Program-made: the position numbers and the translations under genes
Part shown: piece after piece, positions 4,907 to 16,869 of the stretch
How positions within the stretch are numbered: position 1 is the first letter of the stretch
Layout: the number at the start of each line of letters is the position of its first letter
DNA from: Nitrospirota bacterium
Lineage (GTDB): Bacteria; Nitrospirota; UBA9217
Direction of reading: 5' to 3'
Assembly (NCBI GenBank): GCA_023229435.1
Contig: JALNZF010000013.1
Span: forward strand, 10,433 to 74,432
Length of the DNA stretch: 64,000 nt
Notes under the pieces: generated by a model
What the model saw: the letters and a program-made list of their open reading frames with translations, nothing else
The model's database searches: none
What the model was told of the DNA's origin: nothing

Positions 4907-5557
4907 ATGTCAGACGGAACAAATCCACCGGCAAGATTGTCATATAGTACTGGACAGAGCAGCTCTTCTGTTTCAGATGACGATGCGGCGCTCGTATCAT
5001 CTGCGCAAAAAGGCGACCTGCGCGCATTTGAACAGCTGGTGACAAAACACCAGAAAAAGATGCTCAACATCGCGTATCGACTGATCGGGGATCATGATGA
5101 CGCGTGCGAGGTCGTGCAGGACGCATTTGTCTCTGCTTATAAGAACATCAGGCGGTTCCGGGGGGATGCAAAATTCACGACCTGGCTCACGACGATAACC
5201 CTGAACCTGTCGAAGAACCGGCTGAAACAGGTCAGGTCCCGGCAGGGCCATGAAGCCTTTTCCCTGAACGATCCGATCCAGACCGATGACGGCACGATGA
5301 CCATGGACCCGCCGTCAAAGGAACCATCCGTATTGGAGAGAATGGAAAGGCGGGCTGTCCAGACAAGGATGCGGGACTGCATTAAGGCATTGGATGCGGA
5401 TTTTCGGGAGATCCTCGTCCTTCGTGACATGCAGGAGTTCTCGTATGAAGAGATCGGGAGCATGCTCAAGGTCCGCGAGGGCACGGTCAAATCACGGCTG
5501 TTCAGGGCAAGAGATATGGTCAAGGATTGTTTGAAGCGGTTCATGGGAGAACTCTGA
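4907..5557 (+). CDS. ECF (RpoE-like) sigma-70 family sigma factor
   Basis: Region 2 reads LxxAQxGDxxAFEQL and region 4 carries an HTH. A GTG at 4904 or the ATG at 4907 could be the start. Confidence 0.85.
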   Translation: MSDGTNPPARLSYSTGQSSSSVSDDDAALVSSAQKGDLRAFEQLVTKHQKKMLNIAYRLIGDHDDACEVVQDAFVSAYKNIRRFRGDAKFTTWLTTITLNLSKNRLKQVRSRQGHEAFSLNDPIQTDDGTMTMDPPSKEPSVLERMERRAVQTRMRDCIKALDADFREILVLRDMQEFSYEEIGSMLKVREGTVKSRLFRARDMVKDCLKRFMGEL

Positions 5558-6627
5558 TGGAACATAACGACATACGTCATAGACTTTCCGAATATATCGA
5601 TGGGTCAGTCACGGGTGAAGAACGGGCGGCGATCGAAACGCACCTCAAGACGTGCCCGCAATGCAGCAGCGCGCTCGATGAGCTTCGGAAAACCATCGGG
5701 CATATCAAGTCCGTCGAAGAGATCGAGCCGCCTGCATGGATGACGCAGAAGATCATGGCAACCATTCGCGACGAAGCAGCGGAGAAAAAAGGCTTCTTCC
5801 ACAGGTTCTTCTTCCCCCTCCGCATAAAGCTTCCGATCCAGGCCATAGCGGTCCTGTTCCTTGCCGTAACCGGGTTCTATATCTATCAGACGGCGGAAAG
5901 ATTTTCTGAAGCCCCAACGCATGAACTTGCAACCCGGAACGAAGCCCCTCCAGTCGGCACTGCACAGGATAAACTTGCCAAATCTGAAAGTCCTGCGCTT
6001 CGCTCAAAGCAGGTCCCGCAAACTCCGGCGTATAAGGCTCTGGACATGAAACAGGGATACGAGACTCCTCCGCCGCCAATGCTGAAAGGCCGGGCTACGG
6101 CGCCGGTCCCCGTACCTGCACAACCGGCAGAACCGCCGATGCGGAAGAAAGATAAAGTCATGGCGGAGCAACCCACTGTCTCGCCGTACGCCGGGGCACC
6201 GTCATTGCCGCAGGAACAGACCGCGCCGGCTGCTCATGATCCGGGGCGGGACGAAGGGAGACATGAACCCGCACCCTTGAAACGACAATCCAGCGGTTTG
6301 TCGGCAGGCGAGGGATCAGGCTCAGAGAGCGCTCGTTCAGAGACCATTCTTACCGTATCGGTAAAAAATATTGACGACGCCGCGGAAGATATAGAAGCAA
6401 CGATCAGGGAGTTTGACGGAACCATTATCGAGACACAACAGCTCGATAAGAAAAAAATTTATGTGTTATCGCTGGACACTTCCCATGCAAAAGATCTTGT
6501 AGAAAAACTCAAGCACATGGGAGCCATGAAAGAACAAAATCTGGTTCTGAAATCCCGGGAAAGCCGTATGGTATTCAGAATCGAACTCAACAAACGGTCT
6601 GCGCCTAAGGCGGCTGTGGGATGCTGA
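5557..6627 (+). CDS. Anti-sigma factor, zf-HC2 type, single TM, Pro-rich periplasmic linker
   Basis: The start overlaps the sigma stop in an ATGA arrangement. A HxxxCxxC motif (ETHLKTCPQCSS) and one TM segment are present. Confidence 0.7.
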   Translation: MEHNDIRHRLSEYIDGSVTGEERAAIETHLKTCPQCSSALDELRKTIGHIKSVEEIEPPAWMTQKIMATIRDEAAEKKGFFHRFFFPLRIKLPIQAIAVLFLAVTGFYIYQTAERFSEAPTHELATRNEAPPVGTAQDKLAKSESPALRSKQVPQTPAYKALDMKQGYETPPPPMLKGRATAPVPVPAQPAEPPMRKKDKVMAEQPTVSPYAGAPSLPQEQTAPAAHDPGRDEGRHEPAPLKRQSSGLSAGEGSGSESARSETILTVSVKNIDDAAEDIEATIREFDGTIIETQQLDKKKIYVLSLDTSHAKDLVEKLKHMGAMKEQNLVLKSRESRMVFRIELNKRSAPKAAVGC

Positions 6628-7599: not shown

Positions 7600-8673
7600 T
7601 CACAACCACTTCTTTCGTTTAAAGTAAAACAGCATGAACACGGAAATTCCAAGCATCAGGAAGAGGGAGAAAAAATATCCGTAGCGCCACTCCAGCTCCG
7701 GCATGTACTTGAAGTTCATTCCATACACTCCGGCAATGAATGTCAGCGGCATGAAGATCAGGGAAATCACCGTCAGGACCTTCATCACCTCGTTCAAGCG
7801 ATTGCTGACGCTCGACAGGTACAGATCAAGCATGCTGGACAGCATCTCGCGGTAGATGTCCACGCTGTCGATGATATGGATGGAATGGTCGTAGACGTCT
7901 CTGAGATAGGGCGCCGTGGCTTCCCGGATCAGCGATGACTCATGCTTGCCCAGGCCGCTCACCACCTCGCGGAGTGGCCATACGGCGTTGTGCAGAAAGA
8001 TCATCTCCCGCTTTAATTGATAGATCCTCTGCACCGTCTCCTGCTTCGGGTCCCCGATCAGTTCCGTTTCTATCGATTCGATCTTGTCGCCGAACTTCTC
8101 GAGGATGACGAAGTAGTTGTCAACCACCGCATCAAGCAGCGCGTAGGCAAGGTAGTCGGCCTTCATTTTCCGGATGCGTCCCTTGTTGGTCCGGAGATGA
8201 TCACGGATCAAATTAAACACATCTCCCTCGACCCCTTCCTGAAAAGAAAGAACAAAGTTCGCGCCGAGGACAAGGCTGACCTGCTCGGTAACGATATCGC
8301 CGTTCTTGCCGCTGGCGAGCATCTTGAGCACGAGATAAATATATTCTCCGTAGTCCTCCATTTTCGGCCGCTGGTCCGTGTTCATGATGTCTTCCATCAC
8401 GAGCCGGTGGAGTCCGAAGCAGTCGCCGAGCTTCTCGAGCACCTGGGCGTTATGGACACCGTCAACGTTGATCCAGGTCACGGTCGGTTTTTCCTTGAAC
8501 GGGATGCAGGCATCGACAGATGCCTTCTCGATCTCTTGAAAGTTCGCTTCATCGTAATCGATGACATGGATATTGACCTGCTCGTCCTTCTTCTCCCCGG
8601 TATACACCAGCGTCCCGGAAGGGAGGCCTGCTTTTTTGGACCTTTTTTTCGTCAGGTTGCGCATGGCTGGCAT
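7600..8673 (-). CDS. corA: Magnesium/cobalt transporter CorA
   Basis: The YGMNF motif and two C-terminal TM helices are present. Confidence 0.9.
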   Translation of the reverse strand: MPAMRNLTKKRSKKAGLPSGTLVYTGEKKDEQVNIHVIDYDEANFQEIEKASVDACIPFKEKPTVTWINVDGVHNAQVLEKLGDCFGLHRLVMEDIMNTDQRPKMEDYGEYIYLVLKMLASGKNGDIVTEQVSLVLGANFVLSFQEGVEGDVFNLIRDHLRTNKGRIRKMKADYLAYALLDAVVDNYFVILEKFGDKIESIETELIGDPKQETVQRIYQLKREMIFLHNAVWPLREVVSGLGKHESSLIREATAPYLRDVYDHSIHIIDSVDIYREMLSSMLDLYLSSVSNRLNEVMKVLTVISLIFMPLTFIAGVYGMNFKYMPELEWRYGYFFSLFLMLGISVFMLFYFKRKKWL

Positions 8674-9524
8674 TACATGAACTCCTTCAGTGTTGCCCCG
8701 ATCTTATTCACGTCAAAGGCCTGATGCACGAGCGGTTTGTCCTTGATCATCGGAACGCGCTCTTCGAACGTGGGCCGGTTATTGCGATAGATGACGCCGA
8801 TGGGGATGCGGTCGCCCCACTCGAGCGCCTTGGCGAACGCGGCCTTCCGGTCCCCGGGATCATGGTCCGGCCCGACAGGATAGACCCGTTGCTTGTACCA
8901 GTCATAGGTGTTCACCTTGTTAAAGGACACGCAAGGCTGAAGGATGTCGAGGAGGGCAAACCCGCTATGCAGGATCGCCTCTTTCATGAGTCCTTTAAGG
9001 TGCTCCGTATCGGCGGCATATCCCCGGGCCGCGAAACTGCAGTCCAGCGCAACAGCGAGGGCCATGGGGTTGAACTGCTCAGAGATCACGCCGAAAGGCA
9101 TGTTCTTGGTCTTCACCCCTTCACCCGTTGTGGGGGACGCCTGCCCCTTGGTCAGTCCATAGACCTGGTTGTCGTGCACAAAAAGCTTCACGTTGATGTT
9201 CCTGCGCATGGCCGCCATGAGATGGTTGCCGCCCTCGCCGTAGCAGTCGCCGTCGCCGGTCGTGACAATGACCGGCATTGTGTGGTTCGCGAGCCTGATG
9301 CCCGTGGCAACCGGCAGCGTTCTGCCATGCAGTCCGTTAAAGGTGTTGCACTTTGTGTAGTGCGGAAATTTCGCGGCCTGTCCGATGCCGGAGACGATCG
9401 TGAATTGGTGGGGTTCCATATTGAGTTCCAGCACGGTATCCTTGAACGCCTTCATGATCGCGAAATTTCCGCACCCCGGGCACCATGCCGGGACCTGTCC
9501 TCTATACGTTTCTAAGGTGATCAT
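8673..9524 (-). CDS. 2-oxoacid:ferredoxin oxidoreductase beta subunit (TPP-binding)
   Basis: It carries a GDG...N TPP motif (VTTGDGDCYGEGGNH). Its N-terminal Cys is typical of OFOR beta. Confidence 0.85.
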   Translation of the reverse strand: MITLETYRGQVPAWCPGCGNFAIMKAFKDTVLELNMEPHQFTIVSGIGQAAKFPHYTKCNTFNGLHGRTLPVATGIRLANHTMPVIVTTGDGDCYGEGGNHLMAAMRRNINVKLFVHDNQVYGLTKGQASPTTGEGVKTKNMPFGVISEQFNPMALAVALDCSFAARGYAADTEHLKGLMKEAILHSGFALLDILQPCVSFNKVNTYDWYKQRVYPVGPDHDPGDRKAAFAKALEWGDRIPIGVIYRNNRPTFEERVPMIKDKPLVHQAFDVNKIGATLKEFM

Positions 9525-11232
9525 TGATCTCTCCTGTCAGTTCTTCCACGGTAAACGGCCTGCCGTCGTATTTGTTGATCAAGGTATTGAACTCATACCC
9601 TGTCTCGGTCTTCATCAGCCTCGCGAACTGGCTGGTCGCGTTCTGCTCGATACAGATCGTGAGCTTCGCCCGCTTCAGAAGCCCCAGGTAGTCGAATTGC
9701 CCTGTCTCCGGGAAGGGATAGATCTCGGAGAAGTGCAGCATGGCGATTCGGTGAGACTGAGACAGCGCGTCCACGGCCTCCCGCATAAGTCCGTAGAGAG
9801 AACCCCAGCCAATTATCACGACATCGGGTTTGTGATCGCCGTAGAGGAACGGCGGCGCCACCTCCTGCTGCATCTGCGGGAACTTCTTGAACAACCGCTT
9901 CTCAACCATCTTGATGCGCATGCCGGCATCCTCGACAAGGTGGCCGTCCTCATCGTGCTCGTCGCTGTCCGTGACCACAAGGTGTTTCGCATCTCCGGGA
10001 ACTGCCAGCGGGCTTATTCCGCTCTGCGTAAGCGCATGGCGCTTGTAGCCTTCCAGCCTCTGGAACACCTCTCCCCGGAGACGATAGTCCGTGTTCCGGA
10101 GCCGGGCAAGGTCGAATCCTTGATAGCTCCACTGGGAGTCGGAGAGATAGGTGTCGAAAAGGATGAATGCCGGGACCTGGTACTTCTCCGCCAGATCAAA
10201 TGCCTTGTTCACAGAGAAGAAGGCCTGTTCAGGCGAGCCCGGCGCGAAGATGAACCGGGGAAATTCGCCGTGGCCGGCATGCAGCACCATATGAAGCTCG
10301 CCCTGCTCGGTCCGTGTGGGGAGACCGGTTGCCGGGCCCGGCCGCTGGCCCAGCGCGATCACCACCGGCGTCTCGGTGATCGCGGCAAGGGAAACACCCT
10401 CCACCATGAGGGCGAAGCCGCCGCCGGAAGTTCCCGTCATGGAGCGAACGCCCGCGAAAGATGCGCCCAGGGCCATGTTGATGGCCGCGATCTCGTCCTC
10501 TGCCTGCTCCACCACGATGCCGTACTCTTTTTCCTTGCCGGCCAGATAGTTCATGATGCCCGTGGACGGCGTCATGGGATAGGCCGCATAAAACTTCACC
10601 CCCGACGCCATGGAGCCCAGGGCGATGGCCTCGCTCCCGCCCACGAGCATCAGAGCGCCGGCCTTGTCATCACTGGCAACAGAAAAATTGCACGTGAGGC
10701 ACCCCTTCACGGCGTGGTCATAACCGGCCATTGCGGCATTCTTATTCGCAGAAACGATCGGCTCGCCTTTTTTCTTGAAGGTCTCGACGATGAGGTCCAT
10801 CAGGATATCGAGGTCCATCCCGAGCATGCCGAGGACAGCGCCGGTGGCAACCGTGTTGGCCATGATCTTGTCGCCTCCGTGCTGCATGGCAAGCTTCTCA
10901 AAGGGGACATCGAGAAACGCCGGTTTATCGTGCGTTTCCTTGAGCGTTTCAGAATCGTAGATGATCCGGCCGCGGGAGGTAAGCTCACGCTCATGCAGCC
11001 GGATGCTCTCCTTGTCCAAGGCAACGATAATATCGATCGCCCCTTTCGGCGCAATGACCGGCCGTTCGGACAGCCTGATCTGGTAGAAGTTGTGGCCGCC
11101 GCGGATGCGCGACTCATAATCCTGGTTCGTGAAGACATGGTATCCGGAGCGCGCAAATACATGTCCCAACGTGTCACCGATCGTCTGGATCCCCTGTCCT
11201 GCTTCACCGCCGATCTTGATCGAATAGTCCAT
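9502..11232 (-). CDS. 2-oxoacid:ferredoxin oxidoreductase alpha subunit (fused gamma-like + alpha domains)
   Basis: The N-terminal POR gamma-like domain reads IKIGGEAGQGIQ...RGG. It is followed by a pyruvate/2-oxoacid Fd oxidoreductase alpha core and overlaps the beta gene. Confidence 0.85.
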   Translation of the reverse strand: MDYSIKIGGEAGQGIQTIGDTLGHVFARSGYHVFTNQDYESRIRGGHNFYQIRLSERPVIAPKGAIDIIVALDKESIRLHERELTSRGRIIYDSETLKETHDKPAFLDVPFEKLAMQHGGDKIMANTVATGAVLGMLGMDLDILMDLIVETFKKKGEPIVSANKNAAMAGYDHAVKGCLTCNFSVASDDKAGALMLVGGSEAIALGSMASGVKFYAAYPMTPSTGIMNYLAGKEKEYGIVVEQAEDEIAAINMALGASFAGVRSMTGTSGGGFALMVEGVSLAAITETPVVIALGQRPGPATGLPTRTEQGELHMVLHAGHGEFPRFIFAPGSPEQAFFSVNKAFDLAEKYQVPAFILFDTYLSDSQWSYQGFDLARLRNTDYRLRGEVFQRLEGYKRHALTQSGISPLAVPGDAKHLVVTDSDEHDEDGHLVEDAGMRIKMVEKRLFKKFPQMQQEVAPPFLYGDHKPDVVIIGWGSLYGLMREAVDALSQSHRIAMLHFSEIYPFPETGQFDYLGLLKRAKLTICIEQNATSQFARLMKTETGYEFNTLINKYDGRPFTVEELTGEINDHLRNV

Positions 11233-11635: not shown

Positions 11636-11974
11636 TTACCCGATGTCCTCTATCGTGATCACGCCGGATCCCAGAAGTCGCTCCAGAAGGACAAAGCCGC
11701 CACAAGGCCGTGCTGTCCGGTCCTGCATAAAATCGCAGTCCTGTTTGTAAAAATCGCAGACAATACACAGGGTTTTCACTATCCTGTCTGCCAGAACCGG
11801 GCTTGATTCTCCGTTGTTGCTTTCGAGGACAAGGCCTTTCCCTTCTCGCAATAATCGTTCCACGACCCTATAGCCTTTGCATGCAAGCTCTTCGTTCTTT
11901 CCGGGTTCATAGTAGGAACAGAATTTTAAACAAAGTGTTTGTTCCAGCGGCACGTTGTCCGTCATGGGGTCCAT
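11636..11974 (-). CDS. Hypothetical 7-Cys small protein, divergent from radical SAM gene
   Basis: The Cys pattern is CxxxC...C...CxxC...CxF...PCGG. There is no obvious SD. Its start region overlaps the listed rSAM ORF start. Confidence 0.4.
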   Translation of the reverse strand: MDPMTDNVPLEQTLCLKFCSYYEPGKNEELACKGYRVVERLLREGKGLVLESNNGESSPVLADRIVKTLCIVCDFYKQDCDFMQDRTARPCGGFVLLERLLGSGVITIEDIG

Positions 11975-12011
11975 TATAACAAAAATACTGACGGGGTGCT
12001 ATAATAACGCT

Positions 12012-13142
12012 ATGAGTTACTACCTGGCGAGACGGGCCGTCCTGAAATGGCTTGAGATCCCGTCCGTCTATCAGATCGCAAAGGATGAATTATACGAACT
12101 TGACAGCGCTTCGTTCCATTTTCTGAAGACGTGCGCCTCTGACGACGGTTGCGTCTCAAAGAACAGCGCGTTTCTGGATTACTGCCTGGAGGAGGGACTG
12201 CTGACGACGACACCAGGCGTGGTCCAACGGGCCGCTCTTAAACAGGCGCCTGAACCTTCCCTGCGCTACCTGGAGCTCCAGATCACCGATGCCTGCAACC
12301 TCAAATGCAAACATTGCTATATCGACAATGCCGATCGCAACGAATTGTCAGGGGACCAGGTGGTAAAGGTTCTGCGCGAATTCGAGGAGATGCAGGGTTT
12401 GCGCGTGATGATAACCGGCGGCGAACCGCTGGTCCACAGCAAGTTCCACGAGATCAACGAGATGCTCCCTGATTTTTTTATTAGAAAGGTCCTGTTCACG
12501 AATGGCGTGCTCCTTAAAAAGGAAACCCTGAAAACACTCAAGGTCGACGAGATCCAGGTGAGCATAGATGGACTGGAACCGGCACACGAGAGGCTCCGGG
12601 GAAGCGGGACATTCAAACGCTCCCTGGAAGCAATGGAAAATGCGCTTGACGCGGGCTTCGACGTATCCGTGTCCACCATGGTACACCAGTATAATACTGA
12701 GGACTTCGACCGCATGGAAAAGCTTTTCAGAGAGATGCAGATCAAGGATTGGACCGTGGACATCCCGTGCCTGACCGGAAGGCTGAAGGAAAATGATGAT
12801 TTTTATGTCAGCCCCGAACAAGGCGGAAAATATCTCGGCTATGGATACGGCAATGGACTTCATTCGTCCACACAAGGATATGGCTGCGGCCTCCATCTCA
12901 TGGCGGTGATGGCAAATGGGAACATCGCGAAATGCACATTTTACGGGGGCCAACCCATCGGCACGGTAGACCATGGTCTGAAAGCAGCGTGGCGGAACAT
13001 GCAGCCGGTCAGGCTGAAGAACCTTGAGTGTTGCTGCGAGTACCTTGAAGTATGCCGGGGAGGGTGCAGATACCGGGCGGAACTTATCGAGGGAACCGGT
13101 GGAAAGGACCCGTACCGGTGCATGCTTTATGGTATACTATAG
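12012..13142 (+). CDS. Radical SAM/SPASM-domain peptide-modifying enzyme with N-terminal PqqD-like RRE
   Basis: The radical SAM motif is CNLKCKHC (CX3CX2C). The C-terminal SPASM Cys cluster reads GCG...C...CCCEYLEVCRGGC. The N-terminal ~90 aa winged-helix-like region (VLKWLEIPSVYQI...FHFLK) looks like an RRE. The listed ORF begins at TTG 11955 and the ATG at 12012 is preferred. Confidence 0.8.
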   Translation: MSYYLARRAVLKWLEIPSVYQIAKDELYELDSASFHFLKTCASDDGCVSKNSAFLDYCLEEGLLTTTPGVVQRAALKQAPEPSLRYLELQITDACNLKCKHCYIDNADRNELSGDQVVKVLREFEEMQGLRVMITGGEPLVHSKFHEINEMLPDFFIRKVLFTNGVLLKKETLKTLKVDEIQVSIDGLEPAHERLRGSGTFKRSLEAMENALDAGFDVSVSTMVHQYNTEDFDRMEKLFREMQIKDWTVDIPCLTGRLKENDDFYVSPEQGGKYLGYGYGNGLHSSTQGYGCGLHLMAVMANGNIAKCTFYGGQPIGTVDHGLKAAWRNMQPVRLKNLECCCEYLEVCRGGCRYRAELIEGTGGKDPYRCMLYGIL

Positions 13143-13236
13143 GCTAAACAGGTTCGAAATTCGGTTGTAATGCTCCAAAAAAATACACCGTGCTTTTCCG
13201 GATCAGAAACGTTCACAAAAGAAAGGAGGAATTTCC

Positions 13237-13299
13237 ATGACCATTAAGAAAGTGACAAAAAAAATGTCGGTCACCTGCAAGTGCAAAAGCTCTTGCTAA
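13237..13299 (+). CDS. Candidate RiPP precursor peptide MTIKKVTKKMSVTCKCKSSC (20 aa)
   Basis: A perfect SD (AAAGGAGGA) sits 7 nt upstream of the ATG. The ORF is 94 bp downstream of the rSAM/SPASM gene and immediately followed by a strong terminator. It has a Cys-rich C-terminus. It was missed by the ORF track because it is shorter than 60 aa. Confidence 0.55.
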   Translation: MTIKKVTKKMSVTCKCKSSC

Positions 13300-13332
13300 C
13301 TTCGGCAAACGATAAACGATCTGAAAAAGTAT

Positions 13333-13365
13333 AAGCCCGGCAAGAAATGCCGGGCTTATTTTTGG
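13333..13365 (+). terminator. Rho-independent terminator after the peptide ORF
   Basis: The stem aagcccggca-agaaa-tgccgggctt is followed by ATTTTTGGG. Confidence 0.8.
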
Positions 13366-15602: not shown

Positions 15603-15962
15603 ATGAAAAACGGATTTTTCATAGCGATTGCCTGCATGGCCGTGTTGATCGGTGCCTGCAGCCCCAGCACGGATTTCCTGGTGTTAAAACACGGGAGGGG
15701 CTATTACGTGGGGAGTAACTCGAATGCCAGATATGAAATGTTGTGTACGTCTGGCGAAATGGATAAAGTACTTGCTTCCTCAAAACTGAGCATGGAACTA
15801 AAAAACTCCCTCTATAAATACAGCTGTTCCGAGGAACGATCCGGGGAAAAGGTTAAACAGCTCTACGCAGCCATGACGGTTGAACAGAGAAAAGACATTA
15901 AAAATGCCTTTAGAATTAACGGCTTTGACATAAACCAGGGTCCCGGATGTTGCGCAGATTAA
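15603..15962 (+). CDS. Lipoprotein, uncharacterised family (paralog A)
   Basis: It has SD GAAGGAGG and a lipobox LIGAC. It is about 55% identical to paralog B at 16525. Confidence 0.6.
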   Translation: MKNGFFIAIACMAVLIGACSPSTDFLVLKHGRGYYVGSNSNARYEMLCTSGEMDKVLASSKLSMELKNSLYKYSCSEERSGEKVKQLYAAMTVEQRKDIKNAFRINGFDINQGPGCCAD

Positions 15963-16003
15963 TGAGAACCGCGGCCAACAACACCCCGATGAGGAGTTGC
16001 GTC

Positions 16004-16528
16004 ATGCGTCATATTCTATCCCTGTTCATTTTCTTTTCCATTATTTCCGCCAGGCAAGCAGCCTGTCTTGATACTGCCACCGAGAACGGGAAGCCTGCTC
16101 CATCATTCGCACTCGAAAATATCAACGGGGAAAAGGCCGCCCTCGCGGACTATAAGGGAATGGTCGTCCTCCTTAATTTTTGGGCGACCTATTGTGGACC
16201 CTGCAAAAAGGAAATGCCCTCTCTTCACAATCTTTTCCTCGCGTTTAAAAAGGACGGTCTCATCGTATTAGCCGTATCCAGGGACGAAGACAAAAAAAAT
16301 GTTCAATCATTCATCAAAAAACAGGCGATCACGTTTCCCGTGCTTATGGACAAAGATCAGGAGGTTTCCTTCGACCACTATGCTGTTCACAACCTTCCAA
16401 CAAGCTTTCTCATCGACCGGGACGGTATCATCAGAGAAACGATCATCGGCGAACGGGAATGGGATGCTCCGGATATGAAAAAGAAAATAGGATCATTACT
16501 GTCGAGCAAGAAAGGAGAGATGCAATGA
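16004..16528 (+). CDS. TlpA/ResA-like periplasmic thiol:disulfide oxidoreductase
   Basis: The motif WATYCGPC and a signal peptide are present. Start is the ATG at 16004, with SD GAGGAG 7 nt upstream. Confidence 0.8.
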   Translation: MRHILSLFIFFSIISARQAACLDTATENGKPAPSFALENINGEKAALADYKGMVVLLNFWATYCGPCKKEMPSLHNLFLAFKKDGLIVLAVSRDEDKKNVQSFIKKQAITFPVLMDKDQEVSFDHYAVHNLPTSFLIDRDGIIRETIIGEREWDAPDMKKKIGSLLSSKKGEMQ

Positions 16529-16869
16529 AAACCTGGCTCTTGATAGGTATTGCCGGAATGGTCCTGCTTACCAGCGCCTGCACCCCCATGATCATGGTTG
16601 GCAAAGGAGAGCGGAGGGGCGCTTTCCTGGGGAGCAGCTCGAAGACCATGTATGAGATGTTGTGTGCGTCGGGTGACCTGAAGAAAGTGCTTACCGCAAC
16701 ACACCTGAGCACGGAAATGAAAGACTCATTCTATCAGTACAACTGTTCAGCCGAACGTTCCGGTGACAAGCTTAAGCAACTGTACGCTTCCATGACGCCT
16801 GAACAGAGGAAAGACATCAGAACTGCCTTCAAAGCGAATGGCTATTCGATAAACGGCGGAACCTGTTGA
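16525..16869 (+). CDS. Lipoprotein, uncharacterised family (paralog B)
   Basis: The ATG overlaps the tlpA stop (ATGA) and SD AAAGGAGAG is present. The lipobox is LTSAC. The conserved block YEMLCxSG...YxCSxERSGxKxKQLYAxMTxEQRKDI is shared with paralog A. Confidence 0.6.
   Translation: MKTWLLIGIAGMVLLTSACTPMIMVGKGERRGAFLGSSSKTMYEMLCASGDLKKVLTATHLSTEMKDSFYQYNCSAERSGDKLKQLYASMTPEQRKDIRTAFKANGYSINGGTC

Follow-up and report, generated by a model that had tools for sequence, protein, structure and literature searches.

A trio of linked genes in the window, the 64,000-nucleotide stretch of DNA analysed here, looks like an undescribed peptide-modification system. It consists of a 20-codon peptide gene, a radical SAM/SPASM enzyme and a Cys-rich partner protein, and comparison of loci shows the whole trio to be conserved in Nitrospirota, elsewhere among bacteria and on archaeal-type contigs. 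Purifying selection acts on all three genes, which are genuine, and they remain linked through changes of gene order, gene fusion and divergence from bacterium to archaeon. The system is small, with three genes in about 1.8 kb. Searches of Pfam, NCBIfam and the literature found no curated family or paper describing the peptide, the partner or the enzyme clade, and literature searches on the peptide motifs and on SPASM or RiPP systems in Thermodesulfovibrio or Nitrospirota returned nothing relevant.

The peptide gene

The peptide gene MTIKKVTKKMSVTCKCKSSC (13237–13299, forward strand) comprises 20 codons and begins 94 nt past the stop codon of the enzyme gene. A Shine-Dalgarno sequence, AAAGGAGG, was read at 13222–13229 on the same strand, 7 nt before the ATG. 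The encoded peptide contains six basic and no acidic residues and three Cys, all within its C-terminal end, CKCKSSC. When aligned across loci, its N-terminal half is basic, with the pattern M-x-I-[KR]-K-V-x-[KR], and its C-terminal core, T-C-K-C-K-S-S-C followed directly by a stop codon, is invariant.

Several features indicate that this ORF is a real and strongly conserved gene. Among 170 distinct DNA versions, the entropies at codon positions 1, 2 and 3 were 0.44, 0.40 and 1.25 respectively, and entropy was also low at positions −14 to −8, where the Shine-Dalgarno sequence lies. In the loci retrieved through the enzyme alone, codons 13–20 carried 119 synonymous and 5 non-synonymous differences from the consensus. 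Of the 80 such loci, 65 contain the ORF, always with exactly 20 codons, and TAA, TAG and TGA all occur as its stop codon. The first-pass annotation had reported just such an ORF 94 bp downstream of the enzyme, with a Shine-Dalgarno sequence and three C-terminal Cys, all of it present at the positions given, and had noted that the ORF caller missed it. Five of the six common peptide variants were not found in a collection of 15 billion proteins, and gene callers therefore do miss it. The same annotation could not place the peptide among precursors of the SCIFF, PQQ, mycofactocin, streptide or darobactin type; likewise, no match was obtained in Pfam or in NCBIfam (E ≤ 1). Two other roles were considered and rejected. 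An attenuator or leader-peptide function does not suit an ORF that lies downstream of the enzyme and is followed by a terminator and a convergent gene, in a downstream context that varies between loci. A ribosomal-protein-like role for the basic peptide found no support in the genomic contexts.

Linkage to the enzyme and distribution

A short ORF with C-terminal Cys was sought at homologous loci, as the first-pass annotation had proposed, and was found in 65 of 80 genome loci, on the same strand as a radical SAM homologue and immediately downstream of it. Relaxed patterns detected no variant peptide in the 15 genome loci lacking one. Metagenome loci were located by a DNA pattern scan for the peptide, and 86 of the 114 informative ones had an adjoining enzyme homologue (directly upstream in 84, convergent in 2). 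A distant radical SAM gene was present in two more. The remaining 26 (about 23%) showed neither a radical SAM gene nor the partner in the sequence covered, and their contexts vary; such solitary peptide genes count against a three-component module. So does a monophyletic clade of nine enzyme loci with no peptide gene within about 4 kb, six of which carry a class I methyltransferase gene 3' of the enzyme.

The peptide also adjoins enzyme relatives with only 32–46% identity to the window enzyme, both elsewhere among bacteria and on archaeal-type contigs. Gene order changes among these divergent relatives, the peptide being upstream of the enzyme in L199, L201, L202, L203 and L207, downstream in L208 and L209, and convergent in L099 and L140. 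A set of species-representative genomes contained enzyme relatives in 213 stretches. Of the 80 loci retained, 79 belong to Nitrospirota, a distribution that favours vertical descent over patchy spread by mobile DNA.

The radical SAM/SPASM enzyme

The enzyme gene (12012–13142, forward strand) encodes 376 amino acids. The ATG at 12012 was taken as the start in preference to an upstream TTG at 11955, since nearly all homologues are 376 residues long. An N-terminal domain (residues 1–85; 12012–12266) precedes the radical SAM core, which bears the invariant CX3CX2C motif CNLKCKHC (residues 95–102; 12294–12317) with C95, C99 and C102. PF04055 matched the protein with an E value of 7.9e-25 and 88.4 bits against a gathering score of 29.5. 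The SPASM domain (residues 292–370; 12885–13121) matched TIGR04085 over model positions 1–93 of 93, with an E value of 6.5e-9 and 36.1 bits against a cutoff of 27; Pfam PF13186 did not match the window enzyme and matched 2 of 23 diverse relatives. The C-terminal Cys array (C292, C308, C340, C342, C348, C352 and C370) is invariant in alignment A1, and each of its seven Cys stays at 90% conservation or more in the relatives with 32–46% identity. By these model matches and conserved Cys the enzyme is a radical SAM/SPASM protein, and both the radical SAM cluster and the SPASM-type array noticed at first reading were borne out.

The architecture had also been described as that of a peptide maturase, a description that agrees with the closest solved relatives. 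In searches of PDB sequences SkfB was the best match (E 1.8e-21), followed by BlsE, PqqE, MoaA, CteB and SuiB; of these, SkfB, SuiB, CteB and PqqE are peptide maturases. Foldseek ranked SkfB, BlsE, MoaA, SuiB and anSME in that order, using an AlphaFold model of moderate quality (pLDDT 65) in which the SPASM region is poorly modelled. All NCBIfam equivalogs scored far below their own cutoffs for the window enzyme. Besides peptide maturases, the highest of these sub-cutoff scores include tetrapyrrole-modifying radical SAM enzymes, namely NirJ1 (101 bits against 650), AhbD (93.4 against 500), NirJ (92.8 against 515) and AhbC. The tetrapyrrole-enzyme scores count against a peptide-maturation reading.

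The N-terminal domain

The first-pass annotation proposed a PqqD-like extension of about 90 residues, that is, a fused RRE. An extension of about 85 residues is indeed present; the match to PqqD or RRE models did not materialize, an outcome that the annotation had itself listed among those that would refute its proposal. PqqD/RRE models (PF05402) gave no match at E ≤ 10 for eight N-terminal domains and none among 23 diverse full-length relatives, and NCBIfam contained no RRE or PqqD match for the window domain. A profile search of PDB sequences with the domain found no RRE protein. Against 1.84 billion representative proteins the domain profile matched this enzyme family alone, with no other RRE family, and brought up fusions of the partner to the enzyme. 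The missing model match counts against the module reading, as does the peptide leader of about 12 residues, which is short for RRE-dependent recognition.

In the AlphaFold model the domain has strands at residues 3–5, 10–13 and 27–30 followed by helices at 32–41 and 52–60, an RRE-like topology, with pLDDT of 76–82 at residues 31–70 and below 50 at 13–27. Comparison by hhalign with four PqqD sequences, one of them confirmed against PDB PqqD entries and another a putative PqqD of Pseudomonas aeruginosa, gave a weak match in the expected register (probability 11.7%, P 0.0026, 30 columns). Foldseek alignments to SuiB extended over 414–455 columns, longer than the query, and the domain is placed like the N-terminal extension of SuiB. 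This positional analogy, the modelled topology and the hhalign match are all weak signs of an RRE. It contains 10 acidic and 6 basic residues. Its D-E-L-Y-E-L-D strand is acidic and invariant, and E15, D25 and Y28 are invariant across relatives with 32–46% identity to the window enzyme.

The Cys-rich partner protein

The partner gene lies divergently on the reverse strand (11636–11965). It had been noted as a protein of 112 residues with seven Cys, and the seven Cys are invariant (alignment A2). The length of 112 corresponds to a start at ATG 11974; because most homologues have 109 residues, ATG 11965 is the likely start and 109 the likely length. The protein is an internal tandem duplication of the unit C-x2-3-C-x-[FY]-Y ... 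C-x-G-[FY]-x-[VL]-L-E-R-L-L, and its two halves align with a score of 47 against 20.8 ± 4.1 for shuffled sequences, a score reached by 1 of 2000 shuffles. No match was found in Pfam, NCBIfam or fold libraries, and a profile search with the partner alignment returned 393 close relatives without a name and nothing else.

The partner adjoins the enzyme divergently in 64 of 81 loci. In P0276, P0307 and P0312 it is fused in frame to the N-terminus of the enzyme with all of its Cys kept (hhalign probability 97–99%, E 2e-11 to 6e-18), and single-repeat ORFs adjoin the enzyme in L199, L203, L207, L208 and L209. Of the two roles first suggested for this protein, partner or alternative substrate, adjacency and fusion favour the former. 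Its fusion to the enzyme in a number of relatives makes the protein a probable subunit or partner and an unlikely substrate.

Transcription signals and neighbouring genes

The enzyme and partner genes are separated by a conserved divergent control region of 46 nt (11966–12011) with back-to-back −10 boxes. The box TATAAT on the partner side lies at 11978–11973 (reverse strand), and an extended −10 box, TGcTATAAT, lies at 11997–12005 (forward strand) on the enzyme side. A promoter scan identified a site at 11976–12005 with 10 of 12 matches and the TG extension. The motif ATTATAACAAAA-N10-12-TGCTATAAT-N5-7-ATG is conserved across loci, and TAnnnT is kept 4–9 nt before the enzyme ATG in 76 of 81 loci. 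Because both −10 boxes lie 6–7 nt from the start codons and neither gene has a Shine-Dalgarno sequence, both mRNAs are predicted to be leaderless, with transcription start sites placed from these signals.

Downstream of the peptide, the strong intrinsic terminator expected from the first reading was recovered by a terminator scan at 13331–13365 on the forward strand, with a 12-bp stem at 13331–13359, seven G-C pairs and a T-run. Scanning of both strands showed a bidirectional terminator, shared with the convergent FKBP gene. A GC-rich hairpin with a T-run follows the peptide stop in most loci, and no terminator-like site was found between the enzyme and the peptide.

The neighbours in the window are the partner protein, KorAB, CorA and FKBP; across loci, the partner, a 2-oxoacid:ferredoxin oxidoreductase and CorA alone recur. 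Synteny with a KorAB-type oxidoreductase of central metabolism is seen at roughly half of the loci. In eight loci, the partner or the fused enzyme has 3' of it a cupin whose tail reads GGHSxGHxHH, and no remnant of this cupin was found in the partner–korA interval of the window. MoxR-AAA and VWA(CoxE) genes are present in L202 and L206. Conserved genes for a transporter, an exporter, a leader protease or immunity were not found around the 81 loci.

Proposed mechanism

The trio is probably a three-component peptide-maturation module, a reading held with some confidence. The ribosomally made 20-residue peptide would be the substrate of the radical SAM/SPASM enzyme with its family-specific 85-residue N-terminal domain, and the small, all-helical Cys-rich protein would be the third component. 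The basic half of the peptide may be a short recognition sequence that docks as a strand on the acidic D-E-L-Y-E-L-D strand of the RRE-like domain, after which the C-K-C-x3-C core would enter the active site. There the 5'-deoxyadenosyl radical would take a hydrogen, and a SPASM auxiliary cluster would handle a Cys thiolate. By analogy with SkfB, CteB, PapB and QhpD, the most probable product would contain at least one intramolecular thioether link of the sacti or ranthi type; alternatively, the Cys that obligatorily ends the peptide may be the site of the chemistry. The partner, with three Cys per repeat, would act as a bound subunit; its most plausible role would be electron transfer through a metal or Fe-S centre, or else holding the peptide or a metal.

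The pattern of conservation points to a housekeeping or cofactor-like product and not to a typical, variable natural product. The core hardly varies between domains of life, and the gene occurs in single copy, has been passed on mostly by vertical descent and is accompanied by no conserved gene for an exporter, a protease or immunity. An antibiotic is therefore a less likely product than a molecule that stays inside the cell and is cofactor-like or active in metal or redox chemistry, for which PQQ, mycofactocin and SCIFF are parallels. A stronger version, offered as speculation and rather doubtful, is that the peptide is the precursor of an unrecognized ribosomally derived cofactor or metal-binding prosthetic molecule, of a status like that of PQQ or mycofactocin, made by a dedicated enzyme with a Cys3-repeat partner domain in anaerobic Nitrospirota, some other bacteria and some archaea. 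If this is true, use of the cofactor might connect with the oxidation of 2-oxoacids linked to ferredoxin, with the handling of metals, or with the chemistry of thiols and oxidative stress.

Alternative explanations

The alternative that deserves most attention, although we consider it unlikely, is that the enzyme and partner act on a substrate other than the peptide (for instance a protein, a small molecule or a cofactor of tetrapyrrole type), and that the peptide is an unmodified micro-protein, such as a metal or thiol binder with the CxCx3C motif or a chaperone tail, which works in the same pathway and is often found nearby for that reason. The 23% of informative peptide loci without a nearby enzyme, the peptide's own Shine-Dalgarno sequence and terminator, and the enzyme clade with a methyltransferase gene in place of a nearby peptide would all suit this explanation, as would NirJ1, AhbC and AhbD among the top NCBIfam scores, the N-terminal domain without an RRE model match, and the recurring metal-related neighbours (the His-tailed cupin in eight loci, MoxR-AAA with VWA(CoxE), and CorA in the window). 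However, the peptide–enzyme spacing of 27–155 nt is kept through order inversion, fusion and cross-domain divergence, which is the pattern of an enzyme–substrate pair; PqqA/PqqE and MftA/MftC are pairs with such tight adjacency. The N-terminal domain keeps an invariant acidic strand, a counterpart in charge to the peptide's invariant basic half, and the great majority of known SPASM enzymes that carry an extension at the N-terminus mature peptides. Substrate identity is also at issue if the Cys-rich protein were itself modified, as QhpC is by QhpD, and the peptide were incidental. Its seven invariant Cys, its tight divergent pairing with the enzyme and the common promoter region could be read in this way, yet the in-frame fusion to the enzyme N-terminus with all Cys kept suits a domain or subunit and not a released substrate. 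Moreover, the protein shrinks to a single three-Cys repeat in some lineages while the peptide core stays invariant, and it has no leader-like segment, all of which makes this alternative highly improbable.

A conventional secreted antimicrobial sactipeptide or ranthipeptide, that is, a bacteriocin cluster, would resemble the locus in its short Cys-rich precursor adjoining a radical SAM/SPASM enzyme and in having SkfB as the best solved relative. It is nevertheless very unlikely, given a core that is essentially invariant down to 32% enzyme identity and in archaeal-type contexts, synteny with KorAB-type central-metabolism genes in about half of the loci, vertical inheritance as indicated by 79 of 80 loci in Nitrospirota, and the lack of a conserved exporter, leader protease or immunity gene among the 81 loci. 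Finally, the notion that the 20-codon ORF arose by chance, or is part of a non-coding RNA or terminator element, has effectively been refuted. The ORF is very short and unannotated, and weak Rfam matches at the locus overlap the terminator; but these matches are all below the gathering score and sit on the hairpin and not on the ORF, while three-base periodicity, the 119:5 ratio of synonymous to non-synonymous differences, the fixed length of 20 codons, the conserved Shine-Dalgarno sequence and the interchangeable stop codons are those of a coding gene.

Significance and comparison with known systems

Near letter-for-letter conservation from Nitrospirota to archaeal-type genomes, invisibility to annotation and the presence of a third component are the three unusual traits of this family. 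Taken together, they favour a role in the physiology of anaerobes over one confined to particular strains. The peptide gene is also a concrete case of a functional micro-gene overlooked by gene callers. To our knowledge, every new precursor family so far has revealed new chemistry, and we know of no described system with a Cys3-repeat helical third component, whether free, duplicated or fused to the enzyme.

The anSMEs share the SPASM architecture and give a good fold match (4k36–4k39, E about 1e-8). They act on a Cys or Ser side chain and are without an N-terminal domain, whereas the enzyme described here has one, scores far below the cutoff of TIGR03942 and is paired with a peptide lacking the C/S-x-P/A-x-R motif. 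The QhpD/QhpC system similarly pairs a radical SAM/SPASM enzyme with a small Cys-rich polypeptide, and QhpD makes Cys-to-Asp/Glu thioethers. In contrast to that system, no dehydrogenase subunits are found nearby, TIGR03906 matches weakly and on the SPASM part, and some relatives carry the Cys-rich protein as a fusion to the enzyme, in the manner of a subunit.

The sacti- and ranthipeptide maturases (SkfB, AlbA, CteB, PapB and Tte1186/SCIFF) resemble the present enzyme in their C-terminal auxiliary clusters, recognition-type N-extension and adjoining short Cys precursor, and SkfB is its best solved match by both sequence and fold. SCIFF is further alike in having a highly conserved peptide without bacteriocin-type accessory genes. 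However, the models for StsB, SkfB, AlbA, PapB and CefB all score far below their cutoffs for the window enzyme, the best scores being 71.8 bits against 625 for StsB and 63.3 against 300 for SkfB; P0312 and P0335 behave alike. The SPASM motif variant here is CxCx5Cx3C, in contrast to Cx2Cx5Cx3C. No precursor model matched the present peptide, with its 20 residues, leader of about 12 and C-K-C-x3-C-stop core, and in NCBIfam it had no match at E ≤ 1; the SCIFF precursor, by comparison, has about 45 residues and six Cys against three here. We know of no sacti- or ranthipeptide system with an obligatory Cys-rich partner protein or domain.

Radical SAM/SPASM enzymes acting with short peptides have given many natural products and two redox cofactors, PQQ and mycofactocin. 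The PqqA/D/E and MftA/B/C systems resemble the present one in a very short, highly conserved precursor beside the enzyme, in housekeeping-type conservation, in critical residues at the C-terminal end and in precursor genes that are routinely missed by callers. The PqqE and MftC models nevertheless reach only 46–82 bits against cutoffs of 265–381. For the window enzyme, MftC (TIGR03962) scores 82.1 bits against 265 and PqqE is not among the 25 best NCBIfam matches; relatives of the window enzyme score 46–55 bits on the PqqE model against 381. MftA ends in GVY and the present peptide in KSSC, and PqqA has an E-x3-Y motif whereas this peptide contains neither Glu nor Tyr; the core is Cys-based, in place of Glu/Tyr or Val-Tyr. 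There are no mftB/D/E/F neighbours, no separate PqqD or MftB and no tailoring genes of the pqqBCF or mftDEF type downstream. The partner of this enzyme is a novel Cys-rich helical protein.

Locus layout and peptide gene

The arrangement proposed in the first-pass annotation for positions 11636-13365, namely a radical SAM ORF, a 20-codon ORF, a terminator and a divergent protein with seven Cys residues, was borne out, with two changes of coordinates. The enzyme gene ends at 13142 on the forward strand as described, and its start was moved to the ATG at 12012 because the resulting 376 aa is the length of almost all homologues. The product is 100% identical to 'MAG: radical SAM protein [Nitrospirae bacterium]', and the window itself derives from a Nitrospirota metagenome-assembled genome. 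The divergent seven-Cys partner protein is likewise present, most probably from the ATG at 11965, since this gives the usual homologue length of 109 aa. The 20-codon ORF, MTIKKVTKKMSVTCKCKSSC, lies on the forward strand at 13237-13299, 94 nt beyond the enzyme stop, and is preceded by AAAGGAGG, as read from the window sequence. A bidirectional terminator with a 12-bp stem follows at 13331-13359, and a terminator scan of the window found no such site between the enzyme and peptide genes. The 46-nt region between partner and enzyme (11966-12011) is conserved across the genome loci L001-L080 as ATTATAACAAAA-N10-12-TGCTATAAT-N5-7-ATG. Two -10 boxes stand back to back in it, each 6-7 nt from the start codon of its gene. 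With an SD lacking in both genes, this implies divergent leaderless transcripts, and both genes thus appear to be leaderless.

Relatives of the enzyme are encoded on 213 stretches in the species-representative genome set. With the enzyme as sole bait, 80 loci were taken from these genomes, their enzymes being 53-82% identical to that of the window, and 79 of the 80 records belong to Nitrospirota or Thermodesulfovibrionales. The remaining one, L006, is labelled 'Betaproteobacteria bacterium', yet its enzyme shares 71% identity with the window's and its layout is typical of Nitrospirota; the contig is probably mis-binned. A short ORF ending in Cys was found downstream of the enzyme in homologous loci as well: 65 of the 80 carry a 20-codon ORF on the same strand, at a distance of 25-200 nt, which ends in TCKCKSSC or, rarely, in TCTCKSSC or TCKCKNSC. 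The ORF keeps its length, its SD and its start codon, and TAA, TGA and TAG all serve as stop. Among 170 distinct DNA versions of the gene, entropy by codon position was 0.44/0.40/1.25. In the enzyme-retrieved loci, codons 13-20 differed from the consensus by 119 synonymous and 5 non-synonymous changes, and codons 2-12 by 221 and 210 respectively. Judged by these substitution patterns, the ORF is translated; constraint on it is extreme in the C-terminal core and moderate in the N-terminal half, which is basic. Rfam gave only sub-threshold matches in the peptide region, all over the terminator. In a collection of 15 billion predicted proteins, one of six common peptide variants occurred, unnamed, and the other five were absent. 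Annotation therefore overlooks the gene, as had been supposed of ORF callers from the window alone.

Enzyme and N-terminal domain

The enzyme matches Pfam Radical_SAM (E 8e-25), and its C-terminal fragment covers the whole of the SPASM model TIGR04085 (36.1 bits against a cutoff of 27), which confirms the earlier SPASM assignment. Seven Cys residues (C292, C308, C340, C342, C348, C352 and C370) are at least 90% conserved, also in relatives that share only 32-46% identity with the window enzyme; their central motif reads CxCx5Cx3C, not Cx2Cx5Cx3C. For the window enzyme, no NCBIfam equivalog came near its cutoff, the best being NirJ1 (101 bits against 650). The closest solved proteins by sequence are SkfB (1.8e-21), then BlsE, PqqE, MoaA, CteB and SuiB. 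A Foldseek ranking, with a predicted model of mean pLDDT 65 and pTM 0.70 as query, gave SkfB, BlsE, MoaA, SuiB and anSME.

The RRE assigned to the N-terminal region proved the weakest part of the first-pass annotation. Neither PqqD nor any other model matched the 85-aa N-domain (residues 1-85) at E<=10 in eight diverse homologues, and RRE or PqqD matches were absent also in NCBIfam, in PDB sequences and from 23 divergent full-length relatives. A profile search with the N-domain among 1.84 billion representative proteins retrieved 86 proteins, all from the window enzyme's own family. Other observations speak for an RRE. In the AlphaFold model, the domain has three strands followed by two helices. 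SuiB carries an N-terminal RRE, and the Foldseek alignments of the enzyme with SuiB exceed the query length. Comparison by hhalign with a small PqqD alignment gave P = 0.0026 and a probability of 11.7%, with 30 columns aligned in the register to be expected (LYELDeeAfxFLxxCdG in the N-domain, fdLDdnAvaVLkLvDGr in PqqD). Two of the four PqqD sequences used came from PDB alignments, and one of the other two was checked against PDB PqqD entries. 'CDG-x-R/K', a signature typical of PqqD-like domains, occurs in the N-domain of divergent relatives. E15, D25 and Y28 are invariant family-wide; each belongs to the D-E-L-Y-E-L-D strand or lies close to it. The domain is acidic on balance, and the peptide contains six Lys and neither Asp nor Glu. 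The N-domain is treated here as putatively RRE-like.

Conservation in divergent relatives

The N-domain profile search also supplied relatives 32-46% identical to the window enzyme. Nine were looked up; eight gave nine loci, and P0312 yielded no DNA. A 20-residue peptide of the same type adjoins the enzyme in seven of the nine loci, in other gene orders and with slightly different cores. It lies upstream of the enzyme in L201 (P0307; MKIRKVRKCKKGLCKCKSSC), L202 (P0276, GC 0.65; MKIRKVTKTSRGLCKCKSSC), L203 and L204 (P0335; MVIRKVREVVKGTCKCKSSC) and L207 (P0279; MKIRKVVKVSKGLCKCKKTC), and downstream in L208 (P0311; MKIRKVSKTVARTCKCTSSC) and L209 (P0302; VIIKKVSTKEATTCKCSASC, with a second copy, LKIKKVSASSSSTCKCCGSC). 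The two cores in L209 (~5150-5260 and 6270-6335) read ...TCKCSASC and, ~1 kb further downstream, ...TCKCCGSC. Neighbours of archaeal type (aL11, Spt5, FtsZ and LysA) occur in L199, L203 and L204. The family signature over 20 residues is M-x-I-[KR]-K-V ... C-K-C-x3-C-stop. That the two genes stay adjacent through inversion of gene order and through such divergence is the strongest argument for peptide and enzyme acting on each other.

Cys-rich partner

The partner is adjacent and divergent to the enzyme in 64 of 81 loci, and its seven Cys residues are invariant in the alignment. It had no match in Pfam, NCBIfam or a fold search, and all relatives found were unnamed. The protein is an internal duplication of a ~45-residue unit with three Cys residues, the halves scoring 47 against 20.8±4.1 for shuffles. 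Four enzyme relatives of ~500 aa carry it as an N-terminal extension, which is followed by the N-domain, the radical SAM core and SPASM. For the fusions P0276, P0307 and P0312, hhalign gave probabilities of 97-99% (E 2e-11 to 6e-18) over full length with seven Cys residues. Single-repeat partner ORFs overlap the enzyme start in L208 (hhalign probability 90.5%) and L209 (43%), stand between peptide and enzyme in the archaeal-type L199 and L203, and lie upstream of the enzyme in L207. The fusions and the single-repeat forms beside the enzyme indicate that the partner belongs to the enzyme system as a subunit or domain. Of the two roles first suggested for the divergent protein, that of partner stands; that of alternative substrate was judged implausible, since the N-terminal fusion to the enzyme with all seven Cys residues does not suit a released substrate.

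Linkage and genomic surroundings

Metagenome contigs were also scanned for a degenerate DNA motif that spans the final eight peptide codons and the stop. At least 120 loci were found, all those listed having a 20-residue ORF of the same type. Among the 114 informative loci listed, the enzyme is directly upstream of the peptide in 84 (median gap 58 nt), and convergent with it in two (L099 and L140; 13 nt tail to tail); two further loci have a more distant radical SAM gene. The other 26 contigs lack a radical SAM gene or partner, with at least 400 nt of upstream DNA present; the contexts of these lone peptide genes are varied and mostly low-GC. Conversely, no peptide was found within ~4 kb in a monophyletic clade of nine enzyme loci (L031, L036, L046, L051, L077 and L078, plus L065, L071 and L079), in six of which a class I SAM methyltransferase (~200-225 aa; PF13847, E 2e-11) follows the enzyme. 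This clade may form a sub-family in which the genes are unlinked or the substrate differs, and lone peptides and peptide-less enzymes may go back to one event that separated the genes in a single low-GC lineage.

Only three neighbours recur. A two-subunit 2-oxoacid:ferredoxin oxidoreductase is near the locus in ~41 of 81 loci, and the contig with the fusion P0312 also encodes a POR-type enzyme. In the window, the oxidoreductase (alpha/gamma fused, 576 aa; beta, 283 aa) and CorA, the second neighbour, occupy 7600-11232 on the partner's strand, downstream of it. The third is a cupin of ~110 aa with a C-terminal GGHSxGHxHH tail and a weak PF07883 match, confined to some lineages. Its gene comes directly after that of the partner or of the fused enzyme in L030, L074, L075, L086, L130, L168, L201 and L202; the window lacks one. 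The cupin could be an optional fourth part of the system, with a tail suggestive of metal binding.

Rubrerythrin-like, nitroreductase, Fe/Mn superoxide dismutase, glutaredoxin-like and peroxiredoxin genes recur near peptide or enzyme in unrelated contexts (L029, L033, L069, L082, L099, L123, L136, L140, L153, L172 and L209; window 15947-16528), which hints at a thiol or oxidative-stress theme. In the window, a thiol peroxidase (AhpC/TSA family) is flanked by paralogues at 15603-15962 (119 aa, no Pfam match) and 16459-16869 (136 aa), with lipoprotein-like N-termini and the common motif CxSGxxxKVL...QLYAxMTxEQRKDI. In L202 (1-920, 3611-4738) and L206 (319-2537), divergent relatives of the enzyme have, just upstream, genes encoding a MoxR-type AAA+ ATPase and a CoxE-like VWA protein, a kind of pair known as chaperones for metal-centre insertion.

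Proposed function and comparison with known systems

A three-part peptide-maturation module of peptide, enzyme and partner is the best-supported reading. The acidic, RRE-like N-domain would recognize the basic half of the peptide, and the C-K-C-x3-C core would be modified by radical chemistry with the SPASM clusters assisting. The Cys3-repeat partner would be a bound accessory for electron transfer, metal holding or peptide holding. Thioether formation is a first guess by analogy, with reaction at the obligatory C-terminal Cys as the alternative. In the main rival reading, the peptide serves the same pathway as a micro-protein that stays unmodified, and the enzyme has some other target; this reading draws on the 23% of informative peptide genes listed that stand free, on the enzyme clade without a nearby peptide and on the failure of RRE models on the N-domain. 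Against these stands the adjacency of peptide and enzyme in the divergent relatives, and maturation of the peptide is preferred.

Peptide, partner and enzyme clade have no cover in Pfam or NCBIfam release 20, in line with the initial remark that the peptide does not fit SCIFF, PQQ, mycofactocin, streptide or darobactin-type precursors, and full-text literature searches found no paper on this system. Systems that pair a radical SAM/SPASM enzyme with a short precursor are well known in general. New are the precursor family, the obligatory Cys3-repeat partner, whether free, duplicated or fused, and the conservation across domains. No conserved exporter, protease or immunity gene was found among the neighbours of the loci. 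Together with the near-invariant core and the vertical distribution, the lack of export and immunity genes points to a product with a physiological role, resembling a cofactor or being metal- or redox-active, for which the comparable cases are PQQ, mycofactocin and SCIFF rather than bacteriocins.
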